From: Massalongia carnosa | Taxonomy: Eukaryota | Assembly (NCBI GenBank): GCA_965645245.1 | Contig: OZ287078.1 | Location: 1,426,001-1,490,000, forward strand | DNA: 64,000 nucleotides | Direction: 5' to 3' | Shown: one piece after another, positions 11,001-59,807 of the stretch | How positions within the stretch are numbered: position 1 is the first letter of the stretch | How the letters are laid out: each line of letters starts with the position of its first letter | Translations under genes and position numbers: made by a program | Notes under the pieces: generated by a model | The model's database searches: none | What the model saw: the letters and a program-made list of their open reading frames with translations, nothing else | Told to the model about the DNA's origin: nothing

Positions 11001-11083
11001 CTTTATTGCTTCAGTTTTCCTCTGGTATAATTATTTAGTTTTATGGGTAATAGAAATACGCTTCTACTCTCCGAGACTGTAAG

Positions 11084-12822: not shown

Positions 12823-12950
12823 TATTATGCGGTGTAAGCATTACTCTGGACTTTCTGACAGCTGGTCTTTTATAGTCAATCTTTCTTTCTCTACCTTATC
12901 TATTGCATCCAAAGATTTCTCGTACCGAAATCGTAGTCACGAAGACAAAT

Positions 12951-21100: not shown

Positions 21101-21974
21101 CAAGCACGAAAAGGTGCTAGCAGAACCGTGGGTGCTATCAATGATGAGGTAGTATGGAGTTCTTTTGGCTGATGAGCTTTCGATTTGGCGTACCGGCTTG
21201 AGAGCATGCAATGACGAGCTAGGAGACGCTGTGTCCATCTGCAATGTTCGGCCGTTCTGCCGAATGAGGACTGAGCATTTGATATATATGGTAGCAAGGA
21301 CTCGTAAGTTTGCACAGCTTCCTCGAGATTTCCAGCATTTTCTTGACATATTCCTGTGGCGAGTTATTCAATGCCCTTCGGGTAAGATGACAGTTTCAAG
21401 GACTTACCACGGAGAAAAGCACCTTTCACAACGCAAACATGAGTCCAGCCAGCCAACTCGTCACCCTTTGATGCTAGGTGATTCGAGGTTTGTACAAGAT
21501 TAGGTGGAAGCTGCGAGAGCGCTAAGCTGGGCTTATTTATCGTCCAATGAAGCCAAGCGAGGCAGACTTCTGCATGAAAAGTATCTTCCTCGGTAGGATT
21601 ACCATGTTGCAGTGCCGTTACGAGCTCATGAACTCTTTGACCATATTCCAAAGGGGTGAGAGATGGGGAAGTCAAGGGACGCTTAGAAAATTGGGTAGAA
21701 AGCATGTAATCGGTGGCTACCGTGATGTGTAGACCTAATGTGCCTCCAGTTCAGCCATGACCATTGCATTCACATTGGAGAAGCCACGTACACTGTCGTT
21801 GGGGTACATGCTTTGCAACTTTGAGTCGCAAGCACGACACCTCCTCCCAGTTTCCAGCGCAACGAGCTTCATCTAGAAGATACAAATAACGCCTGGCCTT
21901 GTCTGGATCCTTGAGCTGGAGTTTTTATTAGCAATTTGGAGGATGTTCCACTGGGTCTTACTGACACTCAACAT
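18139..21974 (-). CDS. YPP1: TPR/helical-repeat cargo-transport protein, Ypp1/TTC7-like (filamentation protein Rhf1 type)
   Basis: N-terminus KARRYLYLLDEARCAGNWEEV; ILYRAATRSFHSTRILRHLF; WHLLALLLSA; C-terminus RDRAYGLLSSLTKSGAGWDCSEAWFALARAYE. Several introns join ORFs 21364..21705, 20656..21315 and 18139..20619. Confidence 0.8.
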
Positions 21975-31200: not shown

Positions 31201-32997
31201 AGTAACGTATCGGTATCTTCTTCTCCCATTGCACTAATTCTAAAGACACGATTATCAGTGCCTGCAAGACGAATTGCTGTATTTTTATCTCTAGATGTTA
31301 TTAAGATCAAGCTCTTTGCGTTTGAAGACAGATAACGTGACAAAGATGATATCTCTCCACCTTCTCGAGGCACCTGAGCGGTACTTGTATTAAAAAAAAT
31401 GCTTGTATCGTCGGCATTATCGAGAATCATCAACCAGTCTCTGCTATCATCAGACCCCAGCCACCGGGAGACTAAACCTAATATATCGATTTTGGGATCC
31501 TCAGCTCCTGATAACTTGGCTGTAATTGCAATCTCACGATAACTTTGTTCAAAACGAGCAGCATTACTAGCGTGCACCCATAAAAGCGAAACTGAAGGAG
31601 TTCTCAGCCTCAGTCGATATGCATACTCAATCGCGATTTGCGACTTCCTACTCGAGATTAGAGAATCGCAGAATAATCGAGGTCAATTGTTTCATACCCA
31701 ATACCACCCAAGCCAACTAAAGCTACTCGACGGTTATATTGCGATTTCGAAAAGCTCTCATCAATCATTTTGATTATATCTTCACGTCCAACAAAGTCTT
31801 CATCTCGTTCGAACGGCATCACCGTTGTGACTCGTATCTTCACCGATCCTTGACGCTTGAAGTCAGTCATATCAGATAACAGAGACTTTGCGGGTCATCG
31901 CTTGTACCGTCATAATTTCGACGAACCGTTGAGGAGGCATCCATGGTCATTCCTTCAATTACCTTACGAACATTCTGAAAATTGGGATCATCGTTTCCAG
32001 AGAACTTGTTTAGTCCTGAATGATCGGTAAACAGATACATCATGTCCTTTCCCTCTTGTATTGCTGAACGCTGCTTCACTATCTAACTTCTCATGTTAGC
32101 TAATTCGACGCTCAGATAATATACCTACCTCGATTCTTGCACGCCCATCCATATACTCATTTTGCAATTTCTCGTAAAAACACATCATGCGTAGATCCTT
32201 GTATCCGACTGCAAAGTCAAGTGATAATTCATACAGATCTTTATCGCTTGGCTTCAAGGACTCCACCAGGGACGGATCGTTCCTCTTCAGCTTGGCAATA
32301 AATGCTGCGTAGCCTGCAATTTCAGTCCCTCCATGAGGTGTCCCGAGAAATATGATACCCGCAGTTGACCGTTTGATATCCTCATAGTTAGGTCGATTAC
32401 TCGCGAGCACCAGTGCCTAGCCTCCAAGTCAGAATTATGACACATGATATTTTGACTGTGTGAATACAAGCCTGCTTGATCACCAATCCACCCATACTAT
32501 GACCAATGAAAACGATCGGTCGACGAGTAGCCTAAAGACAATAAGCGAGATTGAAATGTATTCGCAGAGCATGTTTAATAAGACGAACATTTATTTTTTT
32601 TCTATCATGCTGTAACGCACCGAGCAGTTGTTCTCCCAATTCTCGAAGACTTGTTTTAACACCCTTTCGATAGGTGTACCAGTCTGATAAGTAGCTAAAC
32701 GTAGCAATCCGTGCATTGGGTACACAGTTCGGAAGCAAATCTCTCAGCCACATTACTTGCTTAACCTCTTGATCTTCTATCAATACTTTCTTGACCCAAG
32801 TAAAGTATGGACTCGCGCCGAGCCCTTGCACGGCAATGATACTGACCAGTGATCAGCATTAAAGTCAGAATCAGGAGGCCTTGATATGTTTACTCGATAG
32901 CCTCGTCTGTCGTAGCCTTGCTGTCTTCCCGCCCCGCAAATTCGGAATGCCATACATAAAGGCCCATGATTGCATCGTCTGACGGCCGAGAGGTCAT
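28230..32997 (-). CDS. Fungal NLR: SesB-like alpha/beta-hydrolase + NB-ARC + TPR repeats
   Basis: Spliced exons give IIAVQGLGA, WLRDLLP..ARIATFSY, nucleophile elbow FIGHSMGGLVIKQ, GIIFLGTPHGG and TDHSGLNKF. NB-ARC: FVGRE, Walker A GLGGIG/KSQIA, Walker B WLMILDNADD, ILITSR, YIPLAITQA, MHRLVQ. Then 42-aa TPR repeats. Confidence 0.92.
28378..30392 (-). repeat. 16 tandem 126-bp TPR-coding repeats with very high internal identity
   Basis: Unit GRWKEAEELEVQVMRT[R/S]TRVLGEEHP[D/S]TL[T/S]SMANLAST[YR/FW/FS]NQ occurs 16 times. Confidence 0.97.
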
Positions 32998-33522: not shown

Positions 33523-33843
33523 TGTGACGGTTCAACCAGGATGTAAATTGACTCTATCTACTTCGTACTCCGTACTGGGTTCCTATTCACTAAGAATATC
33601 AAAGATGCAGAAAGGAAAAGGTGCAGTTGTGGGTGAAGATATACACGCTCGCTTATCCAGATATGACTAGACATGACACTTCAATAAGTGATCAGGTTCT
33701 GCCATTTGTGTCCTATTCAGCCCTGCTCCATATGTGTTCCATTCAGCCTCCGGTCCATGCTCGAGGAACAGGATAATCAGGTTTTTAGAAGGTCAGGTGG
33801 GTAGAAAGGTAGGAAGTAAGGTGAGCATGGTCGAACCGTGACA
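33523..33843. mobile_element. Solo LTR (321 bp) with 5-bp target-site duplication
   Basis: TGTGACGGTTC...GAACCGTGACA (TG..CA, inverted termini 10/11), flanked by TGACA and TGACG. Related copy at 38893. Confidence 0.8.
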
Positions 33844-38892: not shown

Positions 38893-39140
38893 TGTGACGG
38901 TTCAACCAGGACGTTTGAGTTTATCTACTTGGTTTCTATGCACTAAGAATATCAAGATGCAGAAACGAAAACAAGTACAAGGTGCAGTTGTGGGTGAAGA
39001 TATACTTCAAGTTCTGCCATTTGTGTTCCATTCAGCCTCCGGTCCATGCTCCGCAGAGCCGCAAGTATGCTCCGAGGTGGTCCATGCTCGAGGGTCAGGA
39101 TAGTCAGGTGGTTAGAAGAGCAGGTGGGTAGAAAGGTAGG
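38893..39140. mobile_element. Truncated LTR, diverged copy of 33523-33843 in the same orientation
   Basis: Shares TGTGACGGTTCAACCAGGA, CACTAAGAATATCAA, AAGGTGCAGTTGTGGGTGAAGATATAC, TGTGTTCCATTCAGCCTCCGGTCCATGCTC and CAGGTGGGTAGAAAGGTAGG. Lacks the last ~30 bp. Confidence 0.8.
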
Positions 39141-39609: not shown

Positions 39610-39972
39610 TCAGCCAAGCGGACTATTTAATACGCGCGCTGTCCGCCACCTCTCGACCCCCCCGGTCCATCTCCCAAGGGCAATCAGCAACGGAGGGTCC
39701 CTCGGTTTGCCACTCGCCACCCATCTTTGCCGCAGCTCGTCCTGGACGGACTGCCACGCGTGGGCATAGCTTGCTCCGGCTATCGAGACGACGGGGAAAT
39801 CTCCGATCAGCTCGTAGAAATGGTAGATGGTTGGCAGCATGGCGTCGAGAATGTGGTCCTTACCGACGAACACTTTGGGCCAATCGTTTCGCGAGTCCGA
39901 GGGGTCGGTCGTGTCGAATTCGAATCGGGGGTAGATTTTCGGAACGGGGGCGCTGCTCTGTTGCGTGGCCAT
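39610..39972 (-). CDS. 120-aa hypothetical protein; stand-alone version of the C-terminal domain of the paralogs at 51026 and 56361
   Basis: AMLPTIYHFYELIG..P..SYAHAWQSVQDELRQRW..PPLL..RWTGG aligns by eye with ATIPARRNYLHITG..NYAMQWNYLQASLMRWW..APVL..EWYGG and ALVNTWMEFSNLSG..SYAVQYDLLEQEFSRIW..PPRL..PWKDG. Confidence 0.7.
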   Translation of the reverse strand: MATQQSSAPVPKIYPRFEFDTTDPSDSRNDWPKVFVGKDHILDAMLPTIYHFYELIGDFPVVSIAGASYAHAWQSVQDELRQRWVASGKPRDPPLLIALGRWTGGVERWRTARVLNSPLG

Positions 39973-41269
39973 TATTCGTCGTTTTTCGAGCGGGATTCTG
40001 TTCTTTCTGAGCGAGTTTGCTTTGACTGTTGCGGAGTCAAGAGAACAGTGTTAGCTGCCTTGTGGTTTGCTCCGATCTGAAGGAGGGGTGGTAATAAAGA
40101 CGTAAGATTAGAGAATAGGCGATATTCTTGATTTCCGAGTTGCTTTGCCTTGACCTTGAATTTTCCGATGACTGAAGTATCGGCCGAAGTTCAGTTATTT
40201 TCAAATTCCAGAGTTAGTAAGAGCCTTCAAGAATTCAAGTATTAGAACCTTGCCGTTGCGTTTACGACGCAATCCAGACAGCGAACGGTATTTATAGAAA
40301 ATTCCCCTTGCGTTCAACATGCAAAGAGATTCACAGTCCTCGCCTCCAGGCCCCTTTTCCAACTGTCAAGATACTATTTACCCAAACACATCTCCACCCA
40401 ACCTAGATCACAGGCTCATCGTCCAGTTTGCATAAAGATATCACCCTGCTCGATTTCGAGGTTTAACCATGTATCAACATCTTCCGCCAGCAAAGTGCAA
40501 GAAAAATAGAAATGAATGACTATCTTGCAGGGCGATCGGAAAGAGTGAAGACTTAGTTAGGAACGTAATCGAATCGGTGCACACAAATTTCTGTAATGAA
40601 TGAATGAATAGCTATCGAAATGCTAGCTTCGCGGTGGAGGGGATGTTGCTATCTGCGCCATGGTCTAGAGATTCAATCTACGATTCCACTCAGGCACGAG
40701 AGGGAAGAATCATTTCTTCATTCATCCACTTTCCTTTACATTCACTTACTTATCGGCAAATTACCTGGCTTACAACCTCGCCACCCCTTTTGGAAGACTC
40801 AATGTTTGGTTATTTTCGTGGCAATTCATTGGATTTACCTTTCCTTTCTTCTCTTTGTCAAGCCTTAGAGATCCATCTTACCATCGTCCTACTTTATTCC
40901 TTCCTTCTGATCAAAATATATAGCTCGGCGTTTTGTTCTTCTCGTTTCTTTATCTTGTCCCTTCACTTAAACGAGAAAACCTATATCTCCATACTTCCAT
41001 GATTCCTCTCCCTTATCTTCCCTGACCTCTGTATCTTTTCCTCCGTTTCCTTTCCCTCCGTCTATTTGATAGTTGTTCGGAAGAGAAGAGAGAGCGAGAT
41101 TGAGAAGATAAGAGAAGATCATGAGCTAGGAACTGGCGAAGAGTTAAGGAATGAAGGGAAAATCTGGAAAACGGAAGACGAGGCATGAATTGAAGAGGAA
41201 TAAAGCGATAGGAGGTTTGGTTCGAATGCTGAAGGCTGACGAAGAGACACAAAAGCAATCACTCATCAC

Positions 41270-41339
41270 GCAAACCTCCTCACACAAACCTCCTCACACA
41301 AACCTCCTCACACAAACCTCCTCACACAAACCTCCTCAC
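41270..41339 (+). repeat. Minisatellite, 14-bp unit (acaaacctcctcac) x5
   Basis: Direct tandem repeat visible in the sequence. Confidence 0.9.
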
Positions 41340-41897
41340 CCTATTTTCTTCTCATCATAAATCAATTATTACAATGAACGCTTTACAATTTCTGCCTGCA
41401 TGTCTCCTCCCTCTTTGCTGGGTTTGTTCTACATACATTCTTTGCTCTTCACAAGTTTCCCAATTTGTTACACTACTTACGCTCCTCCTATCCCAAACTT
41501 CAACTTCAACATCGATATGGAACATACAAAACACCGAAAAACCTCGTCTATCCGCTCTTCCGTCTGCCTGTCCGTCGGCGTAGGCGCGCTAAACCTCCAA
41601 TAAGGGAGGACACAAAACGACTCTTGGCTGTGCCTATTTGCGAGAACAAACGAGGGTGATAAAAGAGGCGGGAGGGGATGGTCGGTTGGTGAGTATGTGA
41701 GATTCAAAAGCCGGGAAGGTGAAGTGATGGTAGGAGATGATGGCGATATCCAACATCTAGCACTAAACTGTCGCTCGCCAAAACTGCATAACACTAGCGC
41801 TCAGTCATAAACTTGTCGAGTCCAAGTCAACTTATCGGCCATACTATCACCACAATTCACGAACAAATTATCGTCCGCTGATAACCACATCGAAAAA

Positions 41898-43673
41898 CTA
41901 CCCACTCATTGTGGCATCCTCATCAAGTTGCTGCTCGGATGCCGTCCCAAGGGCATCAAGGAAATACTGGCCGTCTTGATGGAGCCAAGGATACGGCGCG
42001 CCGATGATCGCTGTATCCTCTGGATAGGGCGGTGTAGGGTATCGAGGAGAGATGATAGCGTTGTCATGCATGTGGCTGGGGAAGAGGAAATTGGTAGGTT
42101 CATGGTGAGAACAAGCCCGTGCGTTCCCACCACGTGAGTGAATGTGCGCGGTGTAGTGGTGGACACGTTGCACGAAACCCTCTACGTTTTCATAACTCTC
42201 AACATCCTCTTGGATGGTAGAAGCTTCCTCATCTTCATCGTAGGTATTATAGCCGTCAACGGCGTTCGTATAAGCGCAAGCTCTCATGCTTTCTTGACAG
42301 AGACGAGGGTTCTGGGCCTCATAGCGGGTGGAAATTACGGACAAGCAGCGCCCGGCATCATAGGTATCGCTTTCCCCATCAGCGTCTCTTTCCGAGCGAT
42401 GGCCGTCCATGTTGGCTTCGAAGCTAGAGCCTTCAGCGTGCTCGTCCGCGACCTGTCTCTCCTTGGCGATCCTAGCTTTACTTTTCGCCTTCAGAGCCTG
42501 CGCCCGGCGTTTGAAGCCCTCGATATAACTGTTTGTTTTCTCAGGGTCACAAAGTCGAGATCTTTCCGAGAATTTGCCCAGGTTTTTCAGCTTCAGCTCG
42601 GCCGTTTCATAGGGTTCGAGATCACGCCATCCCCTGGTGGTGTTGGCCCGCTTCAGGTGGTCGGGGAGATGGGCTTCGAGAAAGTCGTACATGACGTCGC
42701 TGCCAACACGTTCTTTCCACGCGAGGCAACCGGCCTGTTGCCGGAACCGGCTCATGCGCGCCGACAGCGTGTTTGGCTTGAACAGCGGCTTTTTCCGCGT
42801 ATACCTTTTGCCGCACTTGACGGTAGTTTTGAGGAAGTAGGGAGGCATGCGACCAAGAAAGTCGTTGCGCTGGATGCGGCTATCGATGCGCTCAATGGCT
42901 TCCATTGCGTACCCGGGGAAGTTGGACGAAAGCACGTCGGGGATATCCCGAAAGTGCACCATTGGACGTTGCTTCCAATCAAGCACGAGCTTTCCGCCAT
43001 GATACCAGAGCTGCGGTTTATAGGGAGGGTGACGGTCTTCGGTGCTTTTGTACACAAATGTGATGGAGGGATAATTTGGACGTGTGGGACCCCACGACCT
43101 TTGGGACGGTAGGAAGCTCGTAATATCATTGGGCGCTTCGCCGCGGGGCTGTGGGATATCTTCATAGTGTGAGATGCTAGGTTATTGTGGAAAAGGGGAA
43201 AGATCCTACCATAGCTACCAAGCTGGGATGCGGCGGCAAGGAGTTCATCGCGGATTTGGTAGTGGAAGACTGCTGGGACTGAGTGACGTTAGGTTTTCAT
43301 TTGACAATCACCGAATAGAATGTTTTGCTTACTCCCATCCTGAAATCCCTCAGCGAAGAACATCAGCTCGTACTTATCATTCTCCGAAATGGGCGAGTCT
43401 ATGTTTGGCACGGTGGCAGGTTCTTCTTCAGTCTTGCTTCCTCCATCACCGTTGGATTCATGTTCTTCGTCGGTGGTATCTTCAACCTCGGTATCGCTAG
43501 ATCCTGATGCTTTTACAGATTTAGGACGTGCTAGGAGGATGGGCCGTTGACACATCTGAAAGGGGCGTACCTTGGGCCTTTCTAATTTCAGCTTTAGTCT
43601 TTTCGACAACTTGAATTGAGCGCCGTATGGAGCGTCGTGTGAAGCATCTTGTGGCGGAACGAGTGTTAACCAT
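41898..43673 (-). CDS. Uncharacterised family protein, paralog 1 (core domain only)
   Basis: Exons MVNTRSATR.. / acidic tract / PAVFHYQIRDELL..GSY / DITSF..WG..LWYHGGKLVLD..FRDIPDVLSS..DSRI..DFLGRMP..NTLSARMSRFR..W..R.G..NLGKF.ERS. Three introns. Confidence 0.8.
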
Positions 43674-45536
43674 CGTGCATGAAGATACGATACCTGTTAT
43701 CTAAGCTAGGGTGCACAATCAGGTCTTGTGGGTGATAGAAAGGGAGATCAATGCTTTGTTAGTCTTGATTGAACAGCAGTAGTAATACAGAGATTTACAC
43801 AGCTCCCTGAGGACGGAAGAAAGCCTTAGCAATTTGCGAAGATGAATTCTGTTTCTGCTAGGTGGAGGCAAAGACCGGACCAACATTGAAGAAAGGAATC
43901 AACAAATAAACAAAGCACGGCGATCTCCAATACGGATTGCCACGAGTGATATACTCCAGCGTTTAAATCGCGTGTTTTTTTTTTGAAGTGTTTCAATCTC
44001 TCTAATAGTGCAGGGGGTATTCCTTTTCGCGATAGTCGATGAAATGATCTACGCGTCCTCTCTCTGGAAGCCCCATCACGCACTCCTTGCAGCGAGACCG
44101 CCCTACCGGGACCTGAAACCTCGAGCTTGTGAAAAGTTATGCATCGCGAGATACGAGAACTGGATTATTGCTTCGTCGCCGTGCAACACGCTACAGGTGC
44201 TGTGCGTATGGAGCACCTCCTGGAGTTCGTCGTTAAGCGATTAGGTCATGTGATTAGGGCTTGTAACATCCGCGCCTGATTAGCCGACATGGCTTGGACC
44301 GATTGCGATTGATATTTGTCGGGATATCAAAACCTACCTGGCGCCCCTCCAGTTTCGCTCTACCTGTTTGATGTCTCCAGGATTCATCCTTTGATGGGTT
44401 GGGAGGCAGAGAATGATCTATCGTTCTTACAGAGAAATTGGGTATTTGAAAAACAACGCTGGTGGACGACCCGTTCCAAGAATCGCTTGATGAAAATAAG
44501 GTTCGAAGGGATAGTCAACCTCCGACTGAAACCCCCCACATGGAGTCCACCACTTGTAAATATTCAAAGCCGTCTTCTATCCGAAGTATAATTCATACAT
44601 AGAATAAGACTCAGAACATGAAGAATGCTCATGCAAGAATGGCAATTTTAGTCAATGTATCTTCGGTCTATACGATTCATTTCTGCGTCCAAATAGCTAG
44701 TAGCAGATTTCTCCAGATCCGTGTGCCAGAGTGATGAAGTAGATACTGATTTGATATGGCTTAATCTGAAGCCCAGGCTTCCTGGAACGTACTCATAGCC
44801 GTAGTCCTGTTGCAACATGCTTACCATCCGCCATACTTGATGAATGCAAGGCTTCAAGGTCTCGTTGACAAGCCTTTCTGGTTGTAATCTTGTCTGAAGG
44901 TGTCAACTTATGTTCCAGGATGATAATGGCATCCTAAAATACAAACCCCGTCTCCCTCATAATCAACCAATCATGGTTTATTCGTGTATGATCATGTGTC
45001 GTTGCCAGTGCATAGTGATTTATGCTGACGCGAGCGTCCTCCTGTTTTGTCCGCTCAAGGGTTGGCATAACGATTGATCCTAACACGAGCATCCTTCTAC
45101 TTAGTCCGCTTTAGAGCGGATGCAATCTTGCGTTTGTCGAGAGTAAACTTCTTGCAAACAGAAACAACCAGAAAGCTTAGATCCTCATCTGATAGTCTCT
45201 TCGTCATCATTTCAAGACTTCGATCTAGAAATACTTAACGTCTGTATCCATTAGCCAAACCCCTGAACCCAGAATTCAGACTAGATATCAGTGGACTCAG
45301 AGTGTAGGGGAAAAAACGGTCTTGATAAAAACTGTTGTGAGAAAGGTTCTAACCGCATCAACTGTCGACATCACACAAAGTGAAAGAACATTCCCTCCGG
45401 CGGCGGTGGAGAACACCTAGTACATCTTATTACTCGCTCCGAGACGTGAACATTCAGGGCATCAGAATATTCCATTCCGAGACGCGGAAAATTTAGTACC
45501 CGAGGTTCAATCTCGTCTAACTCCCGTGCACCCACA

Positions 45537-46316
45537 ATGTCTCAAACTTCTATTTCTTCACAAGACTTCGAGTATCCTGACCCAGAGCTACTTCACGGAG
45601 GCAACTCGGCCTATCCACTATTAGACCATAGACTCTACCAACTCTCTTCATCATATCATCAAAGCATCCACGACAACCTTTTATCATCCTATCAGCACCA
45701 AACAGAACTCTCTTTCCCTACGGATGAGACGGAGATGGATCCCGAAGATGATCACCGCATGGATGATGCTGTCGAGAGCCCGGAGAGAGGCATTCAGAGA
45801 GCACCAAACACCGGCCAAGCCAACACACGGCTTGTTGGGAACGCGAATGCGCTCACTACACAAGCAGAAAACCCGTCCTGTGGACGGCAACTCGTTGCCG
45901 AGCTGAAACTGCTTCCACGCCTTCGCGAGGTAGAAATCAAGCCGGGGAAAGGGTTTTCGCTGATTCGGATCAGCAACCAGGTCGCAGCACTGGGGTACAC
46001 GCGTGGGCAGTTAGCCCATCGCCCGTGTACCTACTGCGAAGTCCGGAACGGTCCGTTTCCGCAATGCGTGATCGTTCCGGGGGAGCTGAAGGGAACCTGC
46101 ACCAATTGCTACTATGGCAATAATAGCTCGGCATGCTCGTTCCGAAGTATGTTTTAATCTCTGATGGATGAGGAATCACTGCTGACTTATTTCACAGCGG
46201 ACTTGCCCCAGAACTCCTCGCGTCGTGCGGCGATCCGCCATCCGAGTTTTGTCCATAGCCAGCACCGGCGAGGACCTCGTGGTGGTGGGGTTGGCTCCGC
46301 TCAAACGCATTCCTAA
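45537..46316 (+). CDS. DUF3716-like Cys-cluster protein
   Basis: PCTYCEVRNGPFPQCVIVPGELKGTCTNCYYGNNSSACSFR motif. A GTATGT..GCTGAC..CAG intron (~46148-46197) extends the ORF to a stop at 46316. Confidence 0.75.
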
Positions 46317-46979
46317 ATGCGGGCTTTTGAGGGAGAGGGGGAGGGGGTTACCGGCGGTGGAGGATAATGCCTGCTATGTTACAGATGAACTAGATAATTT
46401 GGATGAGCGGGAAGGATGGGAAGAGCTGGGGAAGAAGAGAGAGATGTTGGTCGACGGCTTGATTAACTTTTCTTTTCACGTGGGTTGGAGGTTTATCAGA
46501 AGGATGTTTCACTCAAGAAGGGTTGCTTACGTAAAGAGAGCGAGGCTGCTTCCCGCCACACCGCCACTGGCGTCAACGTTTAATCGGACTTCACCTTCAC
46601 TTTCACCTGCGTCGTCAACTACATCCTCCTCCGTTCTTGTACTTTACACTTTGTATTTCGTTAGTAGATAGCATGCCTTTTACTTCGAGTACGGTTCCTC
46701 TTCATTGAGCTGGACTCATGTGTTCGGACCAAAGAGCCCAAGCTGCTTCCCGCTTCATCCCGTCATTACAACAAATGTCCGAGATAACGGCCAAGATAGT
46801 GAGAGTAGATGTGTACTACACTTTCATTCCATCGTCGGAGAAAATACCGCGTGATCTGAGCTGAAACTTTAGATGTCGATTCATCAGAGGTTTCCCTGCA
46901 TGAACGGCCTTTTAACATATAAAATATATCTTCTTGCCTTCCTTCAATGTTCCACTCTCCGCTCCACGATCCCTTCATC

Positions 46980-47989
46980 ATGAACCTTTCTCTCATGTTC
47001 CATGTCTCCTTGGTGACTTTTGCGGGTGTTAATGCGATGCCCAAAATCCTCAACCCCTGGTCTACTGATTACCCAGAGGGTCCTCCATGTACTGGTTACC
47101 CCGAGCCCGGATTCACACCTTCTGAGCTGGAAGGTACCTTGATGAGAGAAATAAAGTGGCTGGGGTGGACCGGGCATCACGTTCCATGCGGAGACTACAT
47201 AAGGATGTGGACAACAGCAGAACGCACCGGTACGCTTCGCCATATGTGCGGGCTACTTCCCCCTCTCCTCTATATTCACCCAAGGATTTACCCTTCTAAC
47301 GGATTTTGTTATTATATTTACAGAGATTGGAGTGGCCTACACTGTGACATGCTGCGCCAGGATAGCATGCGCATCGCCATTCCAAAATTCCTACTGCAAG
47401 GATATATCCGATGACAATAGAGATGCACCGCAATGGGTCAAGTACAATTTTATGAGATGAAATCGGGATGGAACCTTTACTGATATAGCACAGAAACGTA
47501 AACGGGAACAAGTTTTGCCCCGGACATGGGAAACAAGGTTGCTGGGTACACGAGTTTGACAATATCGCATCGACAGGGAGTTTGGACGGAGATAAAGTGG
47601 CAGCCACGATCGATACAAACGGCGATGCCACAAATCCCACAGAACAGCAAGCCATGTCAGGCAACACTTTAGCTCCAGCGAACAACAATCTTCCTAGCGA
47701 TAAACCCCAACAAAGCCCCGAGGGAGACACTGCTTTGGCATCAACGCAAGGCGTAACTCAAGACGGTATGTTCTCGCCGAGCTCAGGAGGAGAGCCTGTT
47801 TTCGATCCAGCCAAAGGTATAACTCAGGACACCGGGAACCCCCCTGTCTCTGGCGGAGATACTACCCTTGCTCCCTCGCAAGACGTTGCCCAAGGAGGCG
47901 ATATCATACCGAATTCCAGCGCAGACGTCTCCGCCTTTACCCCTCCTCCTTCTCAGGATGTCGGCTTGTCTTCGTTCATATCCGGATGA
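46980..47989 (+). CDS. Small secreted Cys-rich protein with a low-complexity repeat tail
   Basis: Signal peptide MNLSLMFHVSLVTFAGVNA. With two introns spliced it reads ..IGVAYTVTCCARIACASPFQNSYCKD..WVK/NVNGNKFCPGHGKQGCWVHEF into ORF 47582..47989, which has ~22-aa G/P/T/Q repeats. Confidence 0.65.
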
Positions 47990-48494
47990 CGGAGACCAGA
48001 AAATTATGCCTCGCTCCGAGCACAACGATGATTGCGATAACCTTGATATACTCGAGCTACTCGTGATATCTTTGGCGTCCTTGATCCGATTATCGATCAA
48101 CAAAGTTTCGGTCCCCCTCTCAAGACTATCGATCCTTTGAATTCACAGCTGCCTAACTTCTCCACACAGGAACGCTGACTCGGAATGGGAACATAAGTCA
48201 TGTCCGAGCATGAGATCTAGGTATCCTATCTCAGTGAACATGGCATATATGAGTCAACGATACGATGAGCGTTAAAAATATTCGAATGCGGCGTTGTGCA
48301 AAAGCTAACATATATAAGCTTTGGATCATTTTTAGATAGGAGTTCTACCCCCTCATTTATATCTACGCAAGCACTTTAGTTTAATCTTTGCCATCTTTCG
48401 AAAACCGTAACTAAGCCATAAAAAATCTAACAAACCATCGAACCCAAGTAACATGTACTTCTGCTCTTTTTCCTTTACTCGTCCATACCTCTCA

Positions 48495-49250
48495 TACTAT
48501 CTATATACATACATACATACCTAACTTAAGCCTCCTCCCAAACTAGATATATCTTCCGCCCCCTTTGCATAGCGAAACACCAACCACGGAATTCCTCCCC
48601 ATCCACCCATCTATCCATCCATCCATATACATCCATTCATCTATTCATATGCATATATACATACCCATCCACCCGTATATACAACCAACTCCCAACCTCC
48701 TCCCCAACCCTCCCCCCATCGCGCCCAGATGCGCCCAAGCCCTATTATTCTTCACCTCAAATCCCGTCACTTTTTGTTTTTTTTTGGATTTGATTTTTCC
48801 CTTCCTCTACCTCCTTCTTCTCCTCTGTTCCCTAAATACGTAGGTGCGAGTGAAGATAGAGAGGGGTGGAAAGACTAGTGGAGGTGAATGAATAGATGGA
48901 TGGATTGGATAGATAGCGTTAATTCCTTCCACTGAGGAACTTGACGGTAAATTGAAACAGATATTATAACATTACCTAACATAGCCTAACATAAAAACCC
49001 CTTTCCCAATTCACGACCGAGGGACGAAAAAAAGCCACGCTCCTAGATGAATAAAAATAAAGAAGATACAGAGGAATAAATTCCCTCTAGGGCCGGGAAA
49101 CAAAGCACAGGAGAAGGAGAAGGAGAAGGCATGGGATGGGATGGACAAGAGCACGACATTTTACGTTATTAGTTATTTACTTCTCTATTCCGTCCCGTAC
49201 TAGGCATTCTTTCGATTTTTTGGGATGGATGAATGAATGGATGGATGTAA
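48495..49250. repeat. Low-complexity/microsatellite-rich region ((CATA)n, (CATC)n, (GGAT)n, (GAGAAG)n)
   Basis: Short degenerate tetranucleotide and hexanucleotide runs. Confidence 0.6.
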
Positions 49251-51025
49251 GTATGTTTGTTAGTTCTTACTATTTTACGTATATACCCACAATGTATCGC
49301 ACCGATTGAGATTTATTCAATGTCCATCCATGGATTCTCTCAATTCGCCCCCCTATCCAGACATTCATTTTTTTAAAAAATTTGTGCCCACATCTATTTT
49401 GATGTCAATATGAAGGGATGTCTTGCTCAGTGTGGTTTTTCCCTATCCTGCCTTTTCATTCATCACATACTTTTCCCTTATTGCAATACCGAAATCACAA
49501 GCGTCGCATGCTCCGATGCTGGTTATTTCGGGTTTTAAGTTGATATGAACGCGTCATCATCATCATCAATCTTATGAATAGTTGACTGAAAGGGCAAACC
49601 GAACTTTGGGGATATTTTCAGCTTTTTCCGCTGTCAGATACATACATAACTCAGCACTTGCAGCTTAAGATGAGTTGAGTTCTTATGAAAGTCTGGAGTT
49701 ATATACCTCCTCACATTACCATGATTCCAGGATGAATAGGTGATAGGTGAGCTGTCTATCTGTCTTAGCCGTGCTGCTTGCTGGTTAGATTCTAATCTTC
49801 AAAAGTGCAGTCAGCATGCGAAACTTGGCAGAGCTATTTTGGATGTTTGACGTGAAAGCACTTAACGACATAGATCGCCCCAAATCATCGCAAATCCGTA
49901 TTTGTTAATGTTACTTCAAACTCAAGTGTACGTTGTGCGGTAAATGGTGTGAACTGTCAACAACCATGATGGGGAGGAAGAACAAGAGTCTTTCCCACTT
50001 TTGAAGCATAGTTACTCAGTGCTTTGCCGAATTGCTGTATTTATGCCCTTCTTGGGCAAAGCCGTTGAGCTGGGTTTTCGTTTGATCAGCAGAATTCCTT
50101 TTTTATTGGCTGTTATCCATGTCACTTATAACGTCGAGGAGGTTTGTTTTATTCGTCGGTGTCCAGCAAAAACGGCATCTAATTGGAAAAAATCGGGATA
50201 ATTAGCTTCAGGCTGAAAACGTCAAGGTCATTAAGGAGTTCCAAATTATTGTTAATAGTCACTGATAGATCATAAGTAGCATGAGAATATGACGCGCCGG
50301 GGGCGAAAGTTGTTTCGGAAAAGAGATGATGCCTGTTGCATTCCAGCCCGGGCGAAGCACAGATGGGTATCACAGTGGCGACCTTTGAGATGATAGTGCC
50401 TAGTGCGCGCTTCACGTCCAACGATGCTTAGGACATTAGAGGCTGCTTCAAGAAGAATAACACACGTCGGGTAAACTTACGTTGAACAAAGGGCCTTTGT
50501 TAAAGCTTACAATGTGTTCTTCCGGAGTGTATCTCCTTATGTCTCCTTGAGGACAATTAGACACTGGAAGAAATACTCGGAGACAAAGGCAAGGCGGGCA
50601 GAGGAAAGAAGGATTCTCGGAAACAAGAACGCTGCCTTGCAACTGGGTGTCAGTTTTGTCAAATACCTTCCTGACCTCCATATAAATGATTCCGATGAGT
50701 ACTTGAGAAATAACAACACGGCACCAAGTAGACAAGTGCTGGTTTATTGCCTGAATACTTCTTGCGCGTACCGTTAAAACGCGGTGTGGTGTTGCTATTC
50801 TTCTGGCTGTTTCTTCGTCCCAACACTATTGTTGCTCGATCATTCAACATACTGTATTAACACTAAAAACTCAGCCTCCCTTGCATCGAGCATACTTGTT
50901 ACCTTTCTCCACTTCATATCTTGTACTTTTGCTCTGTGCTCTTTCAGTCATCAAACTCATCGTTAACCAATTCTTGATAAAATCTCTGGATAAAACCTCT
51001 TGAAATCAGTCATCTTACCAGGATA

Positions 51026-52805
51026 ATGGCACGGCTTCCTAAGTCGGTTGGCATCAAGCAGGCCCATTACAGTACAACTCTATCTTCGCATTCTCGTGGG
51101 ACTGTCAGGAGGATGAAGATGAATACCCTCGAGCTTGCTAAGAAACAAGTCAATGATGGACTCGATGGGACCAACGAGTCGAATAATGACAGTAAGCTCG
51201 ATACTCTGGATTGTTTTATGCTTTCAACTCTGACGTAGATTAGGTGATGATTGCGGCTCCATAGTGGAATACTCCACACGTGCTACTACTCGTAAGCCGT
51301 CAACTGCGGTTTAGAGCTGTTTCAACCTTGGATCGATACTAATTCAGTTCCTGATTGCGAAGACACAGATGTTTCTGATGTCGAGCCGAAGTTTGCTTTG
51401 GGCAGAAACCAATCTTCAACCAGCAACAAAGCGCCTAGGAGAAGCGATATGAAAAGTCCAAATACCGTGTATCGTCCTCGTGGAATGATCAAGACTGATG
51501 ATGATGGCTTCGTTTTTTGGCGTGAACAAACCAAGGACACATGGAGTAAGATTGAGCTGCTTTATCTCTATACCATTCAAGTGTAGATGCTCATGATTTG
51601 CAGAGCCAGCAGTGTACCATAATGACATCCGAGCACAGTTGCTTACAGCACGTGCAATAGAAGGACAATATCGTAAGGCACCCATGACTTGGACAGATCC
51701 AACCCTCGCAAAATCAGAAAGACTAATTGGAATAGATTACCCCCGTGAGGTAGGTAGGGCACCCACCGATATTACAGCATTTCACAAGGATCAAGAGTAT
51801 TGGGGGTTCGAGCGCCACCAACGTCCAGATATCCTGCATCAGTATGAGAAGAGAGATCACAAGAACCCCAGTTACGACGTGAAAATCTGGATTCACAACG
51901 GATGTGTCGTCCTTGACTACGACAACCATCCCATCCTTAATTTTAGGAACATCCCAGACACCTTATCCTCCAAACTAGAAGGTGGTCTTCAGGAAGCAAT
52001 CATGCGCGAAGACGCTCGTATTGATGTCAAAGATTTTCGTGTCCGCATGCCAATCGATCCGAAAAACAAGGGGCAGATGTCACTACCAACAAATAGCGCC
52101 ATCAGTATGCGCCGCTCCCGCTTTCGCTGGAAAGCAGGTTACATTTCCTGGACCAAGCGAACCGGATGGGTGGATATCAAGAACTATTTGGACAACTTGC
52201 TTCCAAAGGAGTGCCACTTGGCAAACGACACCCGCAACTTCCGCGAACTCAAGCGCTCCGAAGTCAAGAAAATGGCCTTGATGAACCGCGGAAGATTTCT
52301 CGAGCGCGCCGGAAACCGCAGCATCACCGTGGCGGAACGCGAAAAAATGGATCAGTACTTTCAAAGGAGCATCGACATTGCAGAAGAGTACGAACAGTTG
52401 GTTGAATCCATGGTCGAGGAAGAGACGGGCGACTCTGAGATGGATGAAGACGAGGATATAGGCGTCATGCAGGTGGATGACGATGAAGACATGAGCGACA
52501 GTCAGTTAGTAGAAGATTACCGTTTTAAGACACCGCAGACTCGTCACGAACAGGCCATCGTGGGCAGAGCCACCATTCCGGCTCGTCGCAATTACCTGCA
52601 TATCACCGGGCATATCCCCCCTGCTACTATCAGCACGGACAACTACGCCATGCAGTGGAATTATTTGCAGGCCAGTTTGATGAGGTGGTGGGAGAAGCAG
52701 AATCCAGATGACGATGCGGAGGACGCGCCAGCTGCGCCAGTCTTGGCTCGCGCATACGAATGGTATGGTGGGTTCCCAGATTCCTTCGATGACGATTATG
52801 ATTAG
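51026..52805 (+). CDS. Uncharacterised family protein, paralog 2 (core + C-terminal domain)
   Basis: GMIKTDDDGFVFW / PAVYHNDIRAQLL..GQY / DITAF..WG..WIHNGCVVLD..FRNIPDTLSSKLEG..DARI..DFRVRMP..SAISMRRSRFR..SWTKRTG..NRGRFLERA; acidic linker; C-terminal domain. A 63-nt in-frame intron lies at 51673-51735. 5' exons are tentative. Confidence 0.8.
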
Positions 52806-53645
52806 GTTCGTCTTACCGAGGGCCAAAGGAAGGCATCATTCAGATTTTTCTATTTTATGGATGTATTGTCTGTATACATGTCAAACAGTGCGCTATGTGG
52901 AAGCGAGATTGTACGAAGGAAGATCCTGTGTTGGATAAAAGGTTTTCGACGATGCAGCACGGCCTGGCCACGCCGAGACCATATCAAACACCTATCATTT
53001 GTCCTGCGCTTTACATAGCCGTATACTCTCCTTTCGAGTCATCGAAGCACGAGGGAAGCCCCATTACATGTTGAGATCCGTCTTTCACAAAAGGCGTGTC
53101 TTCAAGAGCGTCGTCCTTTGTTCTGAATCTTTCCCTCGTATCCCCGCTTCAGCCCTGGCTTCTAGACGAACACGATGAGAGCTGTTAGTTAGATAGTCAA
53201 TGAAACAACGAGCTGTACAAAGCCCATCATCATTTGCAGAGAGCGAGAATGAAAGCTTGAAAGATATTGATGTCGAGACTTGGCGCTTGGCGCGCGCGCA
53301 AGGAGCTCCTCGTACATTTCAGGTTAGCCTACAAGTGAACATATCCTAATTAAAAGATGCGATTGTGTGAATACTACTCAGATGGATTTATTTCTCATCT
53401 TTAGTATATCTGGAGACCGCAATCACAAAAGTCACTTAATTTCTTCTCTTAATCTTGTGCCTGACGTTGTAAATTCTCGCTTTTCCATGTCTTAGTCTGC
53501 GGGGTAGTTGATCAATTCAAGGAGTTGAATCGTATTCATTGCTTGATAATTAGAACCTAGTAAAATTTGCCGTGTATCGCAAATCTACTTCACTGATCGA
53601 GTCTCCCTAACTTGAAAGGACTAGTGACATAGATATTTTGGTTAG

Positions 53646-53682
53646 AGTGTGTGTGTGTGTGAGAGAAAGAGAGAGAGGGAGA
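53646..53682 (+). repeat. (GT)n(GA)n microsatellite
   Basis: gtgtgtgtgtgtgtgagagaaagagagagagggaga. Confidence 0.8.
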
Positions 53683-56360
53683 TAGTATACGGATATGCCG
53701 TACTTTTGTACAATTCGCTTTACAAGCTTTCTCGTGGCTGAGTATCCCTTGGATTGATACCTACTCGACCATTATCTTTCTACATGCAACGCCAAATACG
53801 TTCACGCCCATCATGCTACCGCTTCAGCTCTTCTTTCTTAGGACACTCTGGGCACCTAGAGAATAGATGTGCTACAGAATGCAGCACGCGCAGCTTCGAC
53901 GGCGCCCTACTCCGCTAGACAGCAAATTGTTGGCCCCACTAGAAAACATCTATTTGGCAGCGCCGTACCCGTATTACCATTCCAGCCTTGCCGATGATAT
54001 CGAATCTCCAACTCCCCTATGAAATATTTATCGCCCGGCCATTTTTCCCTTTAGAAATAAAGCTGGCAAAAACCTCTACCTCCTCAAATATAATATTCAA
54101 TGCAGAGTTCCATGACAGCATATTCATCCTCGTGAGCAATGCTCTGGTTGATTGGGTTGATGATGTTCTGCCTCAGCGTACTACGGTTGAGTATGGTGTT
54201 TTTTTTCGATCCTTTAGGCAGGTGTCTATCACTGGCTCAGCGGAATGTATCGACCCAAGCATTCGACAATCGATAGTCAACGCCTAATTTTTAGGATCAT
54301 GGGTAGACTCAGCGATAAAGTGTAGAGGGTGGAGAGTAACGTCAATTCGTTGTATCAGGCAGGATAACTCGCTCTGAGGCTGCTTCGATATCACATGAAT
54401 AATCCTACTAGAAAATATTGGTTCTACCGCCGAATAATCTCCAGTACCCTACGCTCATTCTCGTCGTCCTGATGTCAGTGCAGTCTTAACCATATCACCG
54501 TAAAGCCATCAGGTCTGGAAAGAAAACCCAAGAGTCAGGGAAGGGAATTATGAAGTGACGAAACCGAACTAGACATATGAGGATATGCCGGAGGTATGTG
54601 AGGTTGATGATGGTTGATGCAGTATATGAGGATATGAATGAATTCGCAGATTGGTTTGAAGGAAGTAATCGGCAGTAAAGACGAACTAGTTACCATTTAC
54701 CATTTTAGTAAGATAGAAGGCAAATGGATAGTACCACGCTCTTCGCTATCAATTTTCCTATTCAGCCAATCCAGATCCAGGATGATGGCGGCCCTCAAAA
54801 CCGCGAAAGAACAATGGCAAAATTCCCTGCCTAGGTAAGATGAGTGATATAGCACAAAACTAAGAAAATGATGGGAAAGGGCAAATAAAGATATCGAGTA
54901 CGGAAAATAAACAAAGAACCTGGACAAAGAATAAAACAATGGATTCACCACGAGTAAAGATAAATGTCCAATAAAGAGGTTATAAAGATCGAGTCTCTTA
55001 GAGGGCATTGAGACCTTATGAGCCCCCGGGGAATCGGCCACCGCTGCATCTCTTTCCCACCAAACCATACAACCGAACATACATCACACCACAACCAGGC
55101 CAGATGGTGACGACGAGGACGGGGACTAAGCGTACGTTCACCCGTCGATTGCTCAAGATTCAGGGATTGTGATAAATTGTAACGAGCAGCGCGGAGAAAG
55201 GAGGATGGTACAAAGCCGAAGGATGTGGTTGGACTCAGGTCCCCTTGATGGCTAGGCTGGTGGCAGACAACGAAGGACGGAGCAGACAAGAGCGGCGGAT
55301 GGCTCGGGGCTTTGGGTATCCGGAACTCTTTTTCGAGGGGCCCATATGATGATAGTGATGATCGGTTTAAGATGGAGAGTCGGCTATCTATCGAAGTCAG
55401 TCACGTTTGCTCCTCGGCGAGCGTAGTTTCGGAACGAGGAACATACTGAGGTGAAAGCGAGGCAACACCTCCTCTCCTAAGGACGACAACATTCCCTTCT
55501 CGAGATAATGCTTGAGATCATTCGCAAGGGATTATGATTCTATGTCTTCCCTTTGTATCGCCGATCGGCAGCAGTCTTCTCATATCATGCATAGGCAAAA
55601 ATGTAGAGAAATACTTGTTATACTATACGAAACAGCTTGTTATACTACCGCATATATATACTAAATATCGTCACTTATTCTTCTCTCAGGGCGTTCTTTG
55701 TTGAAACCCCCTATATGGGATTTGAGAATTCCTTGATATATCACATAATGATCGGTAAACTCGTTCTTTGACCTGGCACAACTTTGCTTGTCACAACAAC
55801 ATTCAAGATATCTTGTTGTCAAAGGGGGGGGTGGTTGCCAAATTTTCCTCCGTGGAGCGAACCAGAAGTAAACATGGCGATGGAGTACGCACCCCGACCG
55901 TGGGAATCATCACTGCTGGCCGGTTTCTTGTATAAATCTCCGAAACTTATATTTGTTTTCTTTCCTTCCCTTCACACTTGGCTGCTTGTATTCCTCGTTG
56001 GCATCGATATTTTTTCAAGCATCTGCCTGAGTCATCGATTCATTCTTAAGCATACCGATACCATCTTGGAGCCATCAAGGACCTCGGTAAGTCATTCCCT
56101 CTTCCTGTTTTCATCTGCTCCTTATTGTGTGATACCTTGATGCACATACAATGTACCGCATTCCCCTTCAGCATCAAGTCATATACATGGCCAACCTCCA
56201 ATAGCATATTGGCTGATGATGTTTCATTGTTTTCCGCACCATCATACCCCATTCTAATCAAATATTCATTCTAGGACAACTAACATTTTATCTTTCATAG
56301 GCCATCCACCGCTAGCGAACCCCTATTATCTGAAGATCATATCAGATAAAAAGGAATCAG

Positions 56361-59300
56361 ATGTACTCCCGCGGTCTTTCCTTCGCTGGCCTTGGTGAGT
56401 ATCAAGAAACACCCATAAATTTTTTTGAAAAGAAATTGATACCGTGGATAGGGGCCAATAAACCCATGAATAACACCAGCTTTAATTCTCATCGAACTCT
56501 TCAGCAACAAATCCAGCCAAGAATAGGCACTGCAGGTCTTGGACCTCAATACTACCAGCCTCTTCTTGATGGTAAGCTGATGGAATATCAAAACGTAAGA
56601 AAAATGCTAACTTAAGATAGAAAACCATCGACCGGTTGACGAAGAAGAGCTAGGGCGCTTCCTGAGAGCTGAAGGTAAGTCATCGTCCCTCTCTCAGGTA
56701 GGGTTGCTAACTGTACGTAGTGAACGAACCGGATCATAGTCTTTTTGCACAGGAACCACTGGATGGCATCTCCTTGGGCTATCAGAACCCATCAGCTAAC
56801 CAACAAAGAAACGCCCAAGAAACCCACGCAACCCTGGTGCCAACTAAAACCGAACCATATCGCAACCAAAGCTTCCCCACTTTTCAAATTCCTTTGTATG
56901 AAGGTGGTCGAGAGAATTCTAGCGACGTTACAAGAAATTTTGTAAGAAATGAATCTTCGGGCTACCAATACGAACAGACGTATCATGGTTACCCGGATAG
57001 TTATCTGGGAAACAATGCGATAGGAAATTGGCCTCAAAAAAATAACTTGCAAGGGAATGGATCCAAATGGAATGCTCAGCCACAGAAAGCTCCTCAAGGA
57101 AACAGTTATCCGGAATATGGATCTCAGGGCTTCGGGTTTCAAGGGAACGAATATCCAGCAAATGGCTTTCAAGGAATCGGGTATCTTGATAATGTATATC
57201 CAGCAAATCAGATTCAAGGAACCAACTTTCGAGACAGCTGGCGGCAACAACTGCAAAGCAACTTCCCAACTGCGGAGCAGATCCAACAACTTCAGTACCA
57301 AGACAACCTTGCCTATAATCCTCCATGCAACAAAAGTCCCAAGCTCAATCCTCGCCATAGCATGTTTCAAGAACCGCGTGCAATTGGGTACAATTACGAT
57401 CTCAGCCACGGGGGTGCGACATTCCAATTCCACGAATACGAGGGGAGCCAATCGAGTGGGTTGCAGTCTTACGGAGTATATGGAGACTCCGTGGACGACG
57501 CGATTCCAGAGGTTGATTTAACAGAAAAGGAGCCACGAGGTATCGTTGGTGAAGGAGGTTGGGTTGACTTGGCAGTACTTCCGAGGATTCCTTCTAGAGA
57601 GTTGGGATTTCGGAATCGTCAACCAGCGCCTCCTAGAAATCCTCTTATAGAGCCTAATTTTCAGTATCCCACCCTACCGAGAGACGAATTCGATTACATC
57701 ATTCCAGTAGTTCCAAGCAGTCCGAACTATGAGGGAATGAATATCAAGAACTCGGATTTTCAAAATACCTTGTACAACAGTCCGGACAGTAAAGAACAGG
57801 AAGAACAGGTAGAGGCTGACGGGTTTGAAGATCAAGACAACGACGACGGCTTCGGCTTGGACGATGAGGAAGGCGGAAGCGAAGAAGAGCGTATTGCTAG
57901 TTCAACGACGGAGAAAGGCAAGAGCCAGAGTTCCCGAAATCGTAAGTGACCTATGTGAAACTATCAGGCTTGATTACTAACCTATCGCAGGACCAACAAA
58001 CTCAACAGCGAGTCCCTCCTCACAGAGCTACAATCCTCTCACAGGAAAGAGAAAGGCCCTGACTCGCCAAGAAAGGAAAGCACGCGTAAAGGGTATTCCC
58101 GGGTCTGACGGCATTACATCGGCTGGAGAAGTACGGACTTTAGCCGACGGGAGTTTGGTGTGGAAGAGTGGAACGGGCTGGGGTAAGTTCTTGCTTCTCC
58201 GATTATGTGGCTAAACGCTGACCTCGTTACAGTGCCTGCCGTCTACCACAACACAATTCGACCCCGACTGATTCAAGAGATGGCGTCGGTGGGGAGCTAT
58301 GGTAAGTCTTCCAGCCAGTTTTTACTGAACATAACTAATGGAGACAGACAACCCACGGGCATGCGGTCGGGGCGAATGGGATATAACAAGCTACCACCCA
58401 CCCCATAAGGCGTGGGGACCGAGTCGCGTAAACGACTGGCCCTACATGCCCGGGAAGCTTCTTTTCCGTCTGGAACGCAAGGGATACCCAGTGCCAACAT
58501 ATAAGCCCCCGATTTGGCATGATAAAGGCCATGTGGTACTTGATGGAGACAACATGCCTCTTAAGAAATATCACAACATGCCGCTCACGCTCTCGTCGCA
58601 GGTAGAAGGATATCTCATTGAGCAGATGCGTCGTGAGGATATCAGGATAAGCCGCAAGGATATATGTGCCAGAATGCCTCTTCAAAAGGTCAATTCCAAG
58701 GGCAATCTAGTCCGGGGGGCGGGTTTAACAGCCATAGGAATGCGATCGACACGGTTTCGAATGGAGCAAGCTTGCGTTGCATGGACCAAGAGAGAGGGTA
58801 CTGACACTATCTGCGATTACATCAAGGGACTGTTGTCAAAAGAAGGTCTCGAGGCAAACTCGACGGAGGAGCTGCCCGGATTGACACCCCGGCAGCAGGC
58901 GGAAGCTAAACGACCAAACAAGGGCAAATACCTCTCACGGGCAGGACCACGAGCCCTCTCGCCACAGACACGTCTTGAAAGAGATCAGCTTGACGAGGCC
59001 AGACTGAATAGATTGGACGCCAACTCGACTGGCGTTAAGCGTAAGCGAGATAGTCGCGAGTACTCGGGGCTTGGTCCATCAACGATTCAGGGTCAAGAGA
59101 GCCTTGAGTTTGCCACATTGAGAATGGATGACCAAACTGTCCCAGCGCCAAAGAAAATGAGAACTCAATCCATGCCGGTTCTCGGGAATGATTTAGCGGG
59201 ACCGTCACGGTTGCACGGTCATGAATCTGGAGGAGCAGGCGGAGGCAATTCTAGACCTCTTCAATTCGACGCCCAATCGCATCAGTCCTTTTTACCACTG

Positions 59301-59807
59301 CTTACAACTAGCCAGACATACCTACCGATGAACAACTCAAGTCTAGGCGATATCGGATACAGGAGTCACTCTTCTGGCTCTTTTGTGGAAGACCCGTTGT
59401 CTCGACAAGAAAACTTAGATTCTCAATTGAGCCAACAATTCAGGCGAACCGGAGGTAATGAGGAACGGCATGAGCTTAATGAGCACACCAATAACTATAC
59501 CATCAATCCACCGGAAGGTGCCGTGGACTATAGATATGTCCGTCCGAACACCGACGAGGAGATCGAGCTTGTCTCACAGGCCCTCGTTAACACGTGGATG
59601 GAGTTCTCCAATCTCTCCGGACGTATCGCATCTAACACACCAAGTCATGAAAGTTATGCTGTCCAGTACGATTTGCTAGAGCAGGAATTCTCCAGAATAT
59701 GGCGAGGGCAAGGTCCGCCGCCTCGGCTGACAAATGTGGGTCCTTGGAAGGATGGGTTTCACTCTTGCCCAGATCTATACTACGTCGATATCTTTGGAGG
59801 TCTATAG
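56361..59807 (+). CDS. Uncharacterised family protein, paralog 3 (Q/N/G/Y-rich N-terminus + core + C-terminal domain)
   Basis: Multi-exon. ORF 56720..57949 is low complexity, then GEVRTLADGSLVW / PAVYHNTIRPRLI..GSY / DITSY..WG..WHDKGHVVLD..MPLTLSSQVEG..DIRI..DICARMP..AIGMRSTRFR..WTKREG..NKGKYLSRA; basic GVKRKR and PKKMR motifs; C-terminal domain. Start codon uncertain. Confidence 0.8.

Follow-up and report, generated by a model that had tools for sequence, protein, structure and literature searches.

A large undescribed protein family of lichen-forming fungi, met as a cluster of three old paralogs in Massalongia carnosa

Three paralogous genes with a common core

What kind of protein is encoded by three neighbouring genes that resemble one another and match no named domain? 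The question is raised by a stretch of 64,000 nucleotides (nt) from Massalongia carnosa (contig OZ287078.1, positions 1,426,001 to 1,490,000, forward strand), hereafter the window, in whose own numbering positions are given. A first interpretation made from the letters alone (the sequence-only reading) had proposed that these genes, here labelled A, B and C, are old duplicates with an unnamed core, perhaps a nuclear nucleic-acid-binding module of an undescribed regulatory or genome-conflict system. We find that all three belong, intact or nearly so, to a large undescribed intracellular family of lichen-forming Lecanoromycetes. This family numbers hundreds to thousands of members, those with organism names coming from both large subclasses of that class; its core has no match among solved structures, and it is kept in arrays of ancient paralogs. 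The gene models, in which introns were read from the DNA and exons joined by script, are predictions:

41898-43673, minus strand: gene A; exons 43571-43673 (uncertain), 43333-43530, 43210-43278 (PAVFH exon) and 41898-43159; predicted protein of 543 amino acids (aa)
51026-52805, plus strand: gene B; exons 51026-51191, 51244-51291, 51348-51545, 51604-51672 (PAVYH exon) and 51736-52805; predicted protein of 516 aa
56361-59807, plus strand: gene C; exons 56361-56394, 56452-56571, 56621-56674, 56721-57941, 57991-58182, 58233-58301 (PAVYH exon) and 58348-59807; predicted protein of 1049 aa

The spliced models of all three genes are open, with four GT..AG introns of 52-63 nt in gene B and six of 46-57 nt in gene C. 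The first exon of gene A is uncertain because the first intron would be merely 40 nt long, and an alternative ATG at 43555 would give a protein of 517 aa.

The similarity of the three cores is far beyond chance. By BLASTP, A and B share 35% identity over 219 aa (E 4e-39), A and C 33% over 209 aa (E 7e-30), and B and C 38% over 218 aa (E 1e-39), and when the open reading frames (ORFs) of the large exons are aligned (41898-43181 on the minus strand, 51597-52805 and 58335-59807 on the plus strand) the core contains 56 invariant columns, and all the motifs picked out in the sequence-only reading can be found. The core is, however, somewhat larger than the approximately 220 aa given there, namely about 245 aa. 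It is also accompanied by a second conserved domain that had been overlooked, of about 90 aa and located at the C-terminus (D-Y-R-x-x-x-P ... Y-A-x-Q ... W-x-G-G-F), which according to the family profile described below lies within one ORF with the core in both B and C, these two sharing 29% identity over 87 aa of it (E 2e-8, BLASTP). Gene B thus runs from the core (about 51604-52331) through a long helix and an acidic linker to the C-terminal domain (about 52509-52802), and gene C from a long N-terminus rich in Q, N, G and Y through the core (about 58233-59030) to the C-terminal domain (about 59490-59804). Outside the conserved parts the N-termini and linkers are unrelated, as had been supposed, judging both by the alignment and by composition, with Q and N making up 18% of the N-terminal exon of gene C, and D and E 41% of the linker of gene B.

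The exon that encodes the PAV[YF]H motif is exactly 69 nt long in A, B and C, and the presence of an intron on either side of it in all three genes, also part of the sequence-only reading, could be verified: these introns are canonical (GT..AG), occupy identical positions and measure, upstream and downstream respectively, 54 and 50 nt in A, 58 and 63 nt in B, and 50 and 46 nt in C. The downstream intron is in phase 1 and directly follows G[SQ]Y in each gene; in gene B its 63 nt are in frame, and therefore the ORF reads through it. The exon directly upstream of the PAV[YF]H exon carries a small common motif of its own (region 43333-43400 in A, 51464-51545 in B, 58100-58182 in C), in which aromatic residues come after a turn rich in Asp and Gly; gene B reads DDDGFVFWRE...W here and gene C LADGSLVWKSGTGW, and the motif is present also in the homologs P0010 and P0030.

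Taken over the family, the architecture consists of a variable disordered N-terminus, the basic core of about 245 aa, a long helix, an acidic disordered linker and the acidic, helical C-terminal domain of about 90 aa. No signal-peptide-like N-termini were seen in the gene models inspected.

Size and taxonomic range of the family

Word-based searches returned 25 relatives of the B core, three of the A core and six of the C core, with identities of 54-66% when near-identical entries are set aside. A family profile built from 19 sequences reached much further: searched against 1.84 billion cluster representatives (50% identity), it matched 1,738 clusters at E<=1e-3, 1,104 at E<=1e-10 and 530 at E<=1e-30. 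Thirty clusters were looked up and 34 proteins listed, and organism names were available for 17 clusters, every one of them from a lichen-forming member of the Lecanoromycetes. The named members come from Pseudocyphellaria, Lobaria, Sticta, Villophora, Trapelia (two clusters), Gallowayella, Variospora/Caloplaca and Xylographa, and from three further Caloplaca-like clusters, Fulgogasparrea, Blastenia, Letrouitia, Toensbergia and Lignoscripta. A taxonomy check of six of these genera placed them in five orders (Peltigerales, Teloschistales, Rhizocarpales, Trapeliales and Baeomycetales) that represent both large subclasses of the Lecanoromycetes; the remaining genera belong to the same class. Judging by the best 150 of the 1,738 matches, the family can be called lineage-specific, as had been proposed, with regard to a whole fungal class but not to Massalongia carnosa alone.

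In public annotation all the named members are hypothetical proteins. Full-text literature searches (supplements being outside their scope) yielded no description of the family, and none is contained in the available passages of a Peltigera pangenome preprint or of PMC9232553.

Old paralogs in recurring tandem arrays

In maximum-likelihood trees of the core (quick search, 84 and 88 rows), A, B and C fall into three separate supported clades, each of which includes closer homologs from other species. This implies that A, B and C are old paralogs, and that the duplications are older at least than the split among those Peltigerales that were sampled; together with the common intron positions, the separate clades bear out the earlier view of the genes as old duplicates.

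Such clusters also exist elsewhere. A scan of metagenome contigs with the homolog P0077 identified seven alleles of one locus from another lichen (L001-L007), and a corresponding scan with an alignment of the B clade found no relative. Within 23.6 kb, allele L001 carries four members of the family, plus the beginning of a fifth, all on one strand:

2134-5123: first member
9866-13618: second member
14931-16967: third member
19662-21503: fourth member
23263 onwards: start of a fifth member

The members of this array are only 23-41% identical to one another in the core. Two of the four start exactly at the intron that follows G[SQ]Y and the other two read through without an intron, so that this intron position is old, yet not universal. 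In addition, two members of one Caloplaca-like genome have locus tags that are eight apart and lie on contigs of equal recorded length. Arrays of old diverged paralogs are thus recurring and not peculiar to the Massalongia carnosa window: genes of the family are duplicated in tandem, and the copies, once diverged, are kept for a long time.

Across alleles L001-L006 the ratio of nonsynonymous to synonymous substitution rates (dN/dS) was 0.44-0.60, 0.17-0.34 and 0.07-0.88 for three members of the array, values that carry little weight because dS is at most 0.03 and differences are few, and that at most hint at a purifying tendency in these sequences. Allele L007 is 99.4-99.8% identical to L001 in DNA and has few insertions or deletions; in it the first array member (2223-5209) falls apart into four separate ORFs, and the second (11183-13618) begins about 440 codons late. 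These breaks could be real pseudogenisation or assembly errors.

A core without a known domain or fold

The description of the core as an unnamed domain holds, in that no Pfam family could be assigned to it in the window copies or in the homologs scanned. Pfam gave no match to A, B or C at E<=1, and among 84 aligned members no family was matched by more than one. Only when 92 members were scanned at E<=10 did a single family, TAF1C_C (PF20643), recur: P0125 scored 26.9 bits, above the gathering score of 22.5, followed by P0087 (21.8), P0093 (18.5) and P0044 (16.5). These four members belong to two subclades that share 33-35% identity, and their registers agree within two residues, with Pfam positions 11-67 falling on positions 98-158 of the hidden Markov model (HMM) of the family, or about 126-184 of the B ORF. 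This is the most conserved, Arg-rich segment of the core, a helix-loop-helix.

The recurring signal invites the explanation that these proteins are diverged paralogs of TAF1C/Rrn6, a factor of RNA polymerase I, or have borrowed a module from it, and act in transcription of ribosomal DNA. The consistent register in four of 92 members and the one score above the cut-off speak for it, and no other curated family gives a repeated signal. However, the match covers about 57 of the approximately 245 core residues, a quarter of the core, and the beta-propeller and helical-bundle Pfam domains of TAF1C were absent from the 54, 84 and 92 homologs scanned. No Rrn6/TAF1C chain was among the structural matches listed for either the core or the whole model, no TAF1C chain was found in the PDB by sequence, and searches of PDB sequences with the family profile and with P0125 returned low-complexity or chance rows only. 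Given also that A, B and C themselves are unmatched, this explanation seems quite improbable to us, and we regard TAF1C_C as what may be a real lead and not as a family to which these proteins would be assigned.

As for other candidates, HET, HeLo or similar incompatibility domains were not detected by Pfam in the window copies or the scanned homologs, and neither PADLOC nor PHROGs matched any of ten proteins. Fungal domains of unknown function such as DUF3716 resemble the present family in being conserved in fungi only and annotated as hypothetical proteins, but differ from it, since this family has no Pfam model, comprises two domains (about 245 and 90 aa), far more than one small motif, and has named members that all belong to one class.

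AlphaFold2 modelled the core of B (245 aa, 109 sequences) with a predicted local distance difference test (pLDDT) score of 90.9 and a predicted template modelling score (pTM) of 0.87, and the 402-aa B ORF (84 sequences) with a pLDDT of 87.3 and a pTM of 0.71. The predicted core begins with a strand and a helix (PAVYH...), continues with a Trp-rich, mostly irregular stretch that has short strands, and ends with seven helices; it is followed in the model by a helix of 32 residues, the disordered acidic linker, and three helices with an ordered tail. Foldseek against the PDB gave no row at E<1 for either the whole B model or the core, and a viral library gave no match (best E 1.1). The modelling and structure search that the sequence-only reading had put forward thus results in a confident core model with no PDB counterpart, and the core, as modelled, is probably a new fold.

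A tentative nuclear role

The core is basic (median isoelectric point (pI) 9.5, net charge +7, n=184), with the charge gathered in the Arg-rich helices and +6 of it located in HMM positions 99-160. By contrast, an acidic character marks the C-terminal domain (pI 5.1, net charge -4, n=110). Runs of four basic residues ([KR]{4}), which resemble nuclear localisation signals, occur in 86 of the 123 homologs of at least 450 aa, versus 18.7 +/- 3.6 in shuffled sequences (maximum 31 in 200 shuffles). Because of the basic core, the enrichment of these runs, the disordered linkers and the TAF1C_C lead, we favour a binding module that acts in the nucleus and carries disordered regions as effectors, and we put forward, as a tentative proposal that may well prove wrong, that the proteins are nuclear regulators. 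The nuclear nucleic-acid-binding module of the sequence-only reading is in this respect plausible, the support for it being indirect.

If the proteins are such regulators, the binding surface would be the Arg-rich helix-loop-helix segment (about residues 126-184 of the B ORF, with the motifs EA..R.D.RI...D..ARMP ... SMR.SRFR), and it might contact nucleic acid, chromatin or some part of the transcription apparatus. Effector or recruitment functions would then fall to the disordered acidic and Q/N-rich regions, the acidic C-terminal domain could dock on the basic core and modulate it, and the paralogs would differ in their target or partner.

Several observations weigh against this proposal. 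Foldseek recovered no helix-turn-helix or other nucleic-acid-binding fold, the best homeodomain and Myb domain rows having E-values of 3.7-9.5. The TAF1C_C matches are absent from 88 of the 92 members and from A, B and C, and the link may therefore be compositional, arising from richness in arginine. Basic charge and K/R runs are common also in non-nuclear proteins, and the pTM of the whole model (0.71) is no more than suggestive of a C-terminal domain docked on the core. The function is one that we infer, and the restriction to Lecanoromycetes is drawn from the best 150 of the 1,738 profile matches.

The structure search equally bears on another explanation, in which the proteins would be non-nuclear enzymes or cytoplasmic scaffolds with a new fold, and E133, R137, D146, R150, R175, R177 and N210 (numbered in the B ORF) would form an active or ligand site. 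Nearly invariant charged residues are indeed grouped in one segment, the core model is compact and confidently folded, and no DNA-binding fold was detected. On the other hand, no enzyme family or fold was matched either, the E-x3-R and D-x3-R spacings could be salt bridges within helices, and long disordered acidic and Q/N-rich regions with enriched basic runs are more typical of regulators. We consider an enzyme or scaffold unlikely.

Should the proteins be nuclear regulators, one may go further and picture them as class-wide regulators of lichen fungi, built on an unseen fold, whose array paralogs each control a part of lichen development, symbiosis or genome defence, an extension that we regard as doubtful. 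To our knowledge, comparative studies have produced almost no gene sets that are shared among lichen-formers yet absent elsewhere, and as nuclear regulators the family would be one of few candidates for a "lichen toolkit" of genes. If the restriction to lichens holds, it would be a concrete and testable candidate for lichen-specific biology; if it fails, what is left is a large fungal domain family, hitherto uncharacterised, for which a name and a model are warranted. For six lichen fungi, the passages available from PMC9232553 report a single lichen-specific core orthogroup, which is not identified there.

Gene A and a separate C-terminal domain

Unlike its closest relatives, P0027 and P0028, in which core and C-terminal domain are in a single ORF, gene A has the core and no recognisable C-terminal domain, its profile match being limited to HMM positions 19-293. 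A complete C-terminal domain is nevertheless found 1.85 kb beyond its stop:

39613-40050, minus strand: orphan ORF; the family's C-terminal domain in full, 120 aa when counted from the ATG of this ORF (HMM positions 300-386, E 2e-11, hmmsearch)

Gene A can be aligned to P0027 up to about residue 169, and the orphan ORF matches residues 178-272 of the same protein (E 6e-16, BLASTP); the two pieces are therefore complementary. A branch point and acceptor (CTAAC...CAG, 40026-40055) lie just before the orphan ORF, and no convincing phase-1 donor for splicing to it was found in the tail of gene A. Two origins are conceivable for the orphan ORF: it is the last exon of gene A, detached by an interposed 2.3 kb or so of unrelated sequence, or it is what survives of a fourth paralog. 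Between gene A and this ORF lies a short repeat (41271-41314), at which the contigs of all three assemblies from the same organism break and pieces of 33-41 nt occur at about three times the depth of the neighbouring sequence.

Genomic neighbourhood

Are these genes ordinary host genes, or parts of something more mobile or more antagonistic? One contig of about 21.5 kb, identical to the window, spans 41310-59807 in three DNA runs from the same organism, the contigs of all four runs found being DNA with no spliced joints, and the cluster region has no second copy in the window, barring an unrelated 130-bp match. That the proteins are encoded by a transposon, or by a mobile element domesticated recently, is a reading to which the large family size and the lack of cellular homologs of known function might lend some credit. 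It may also draw on P0119 (586 aa), in which residues 320-414, outside the core, give a near-threshold match to Peptidase_C48 (E 6.4e-4, 20.1 versus 20.7 bits), a match that may reflect a fusion or a merged gene call; this Ulp1 protease domain rides on some transposons. Yet the sequence is unique, with DNA contigs unbroken throughout 41310-59807 and no copies elsewhere in the window, intron positions have been kept between ancient paralogs and in another lichen, each clade contains homologs of other species at plausible distances, and transposase, integrase or reverse-transcriptase domains were not found. A mobile origin is accordingly very unlikely. The transposon debris that the sequence-only reading had placed beside the cluster is not supported either, none of 48 neighbouring ORFs having a transposon-type Pfam domain.

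An NLR-type ORF lies 8 kb from the orphan ORF:

28230-31682, minus strand: NLR-type ORF of 1150 aa; an NB-ARC-like region with a DUF7779 match, then 17 nearly identical 42-aa TPR_10 repeats

Its proximity had been taken, together with the supposed debris, to fit a regulatory or genome-conflict system. In a genome-conflict view the family would consist of fast-diverging tandem paralogs used for conflict or recognition, be it allorecognition, meiotic drive or control of transposons, by analogy with KRAB zinc-finger gene clusters and fungal het loci. The occurrence of diverged paralogs in tandem in two or three lichens, the large size of the family, the nearby NLR, a gene A without a C-terminal domain of its own, and an allele (L007) with frame breaks in two array members would all be in keeping with this. 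The likeness to KRAB zinc-finger clusters, which exemplify clustered and lineage-expanded families of nuclear regulators, would lie in the many paralogs per genome, the tandem diverged arrays and the combination of a conserved binding module with variable effector regions; the present family differs, however, in having neither zinc fingers nor a known DNA-binding fold, in having old clades that extend across orders, and in the lack of a transposon link. The L001 array has no NLR and no Pfam-recognisable neighbour at all, which leaves the association with the NLR unsupported. Furthermore, the paralog clades are old and common to several orders instead of species-specific, neither a death or recognition domain (HET, HeLo or any other) nor a PADLOC match was obtained, transposon domains are missing from the 48 nearby ORFs, and dN/dS is below one. 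With both the NLR link and the debris failing, the conflict explanation has gained no support, and we think it improbable.

The repeat block of the NLR is open in all three frames on both strands. In the ORF-poor stretch between the NLR and the family cluster there is a pair of segments of about 130 bp that are 73% identical (33692-33813 and 39007-39140). One further ORF was recognised between genes A and B, and no neighbour of its type was seen in the L001 array:

45450-46157, plus strand: ORF with a Cys-rich DUF3716 domain (Pfam E 1.3e-16)

Finally, in run X4, which is labelled as a second organism, 58% of the words sampled from 39808-59807 are present, and the short contigs of this run are 99-100% identical to the window across the whole cluster, the differences listed being two bases and one insertion of 3 nt.

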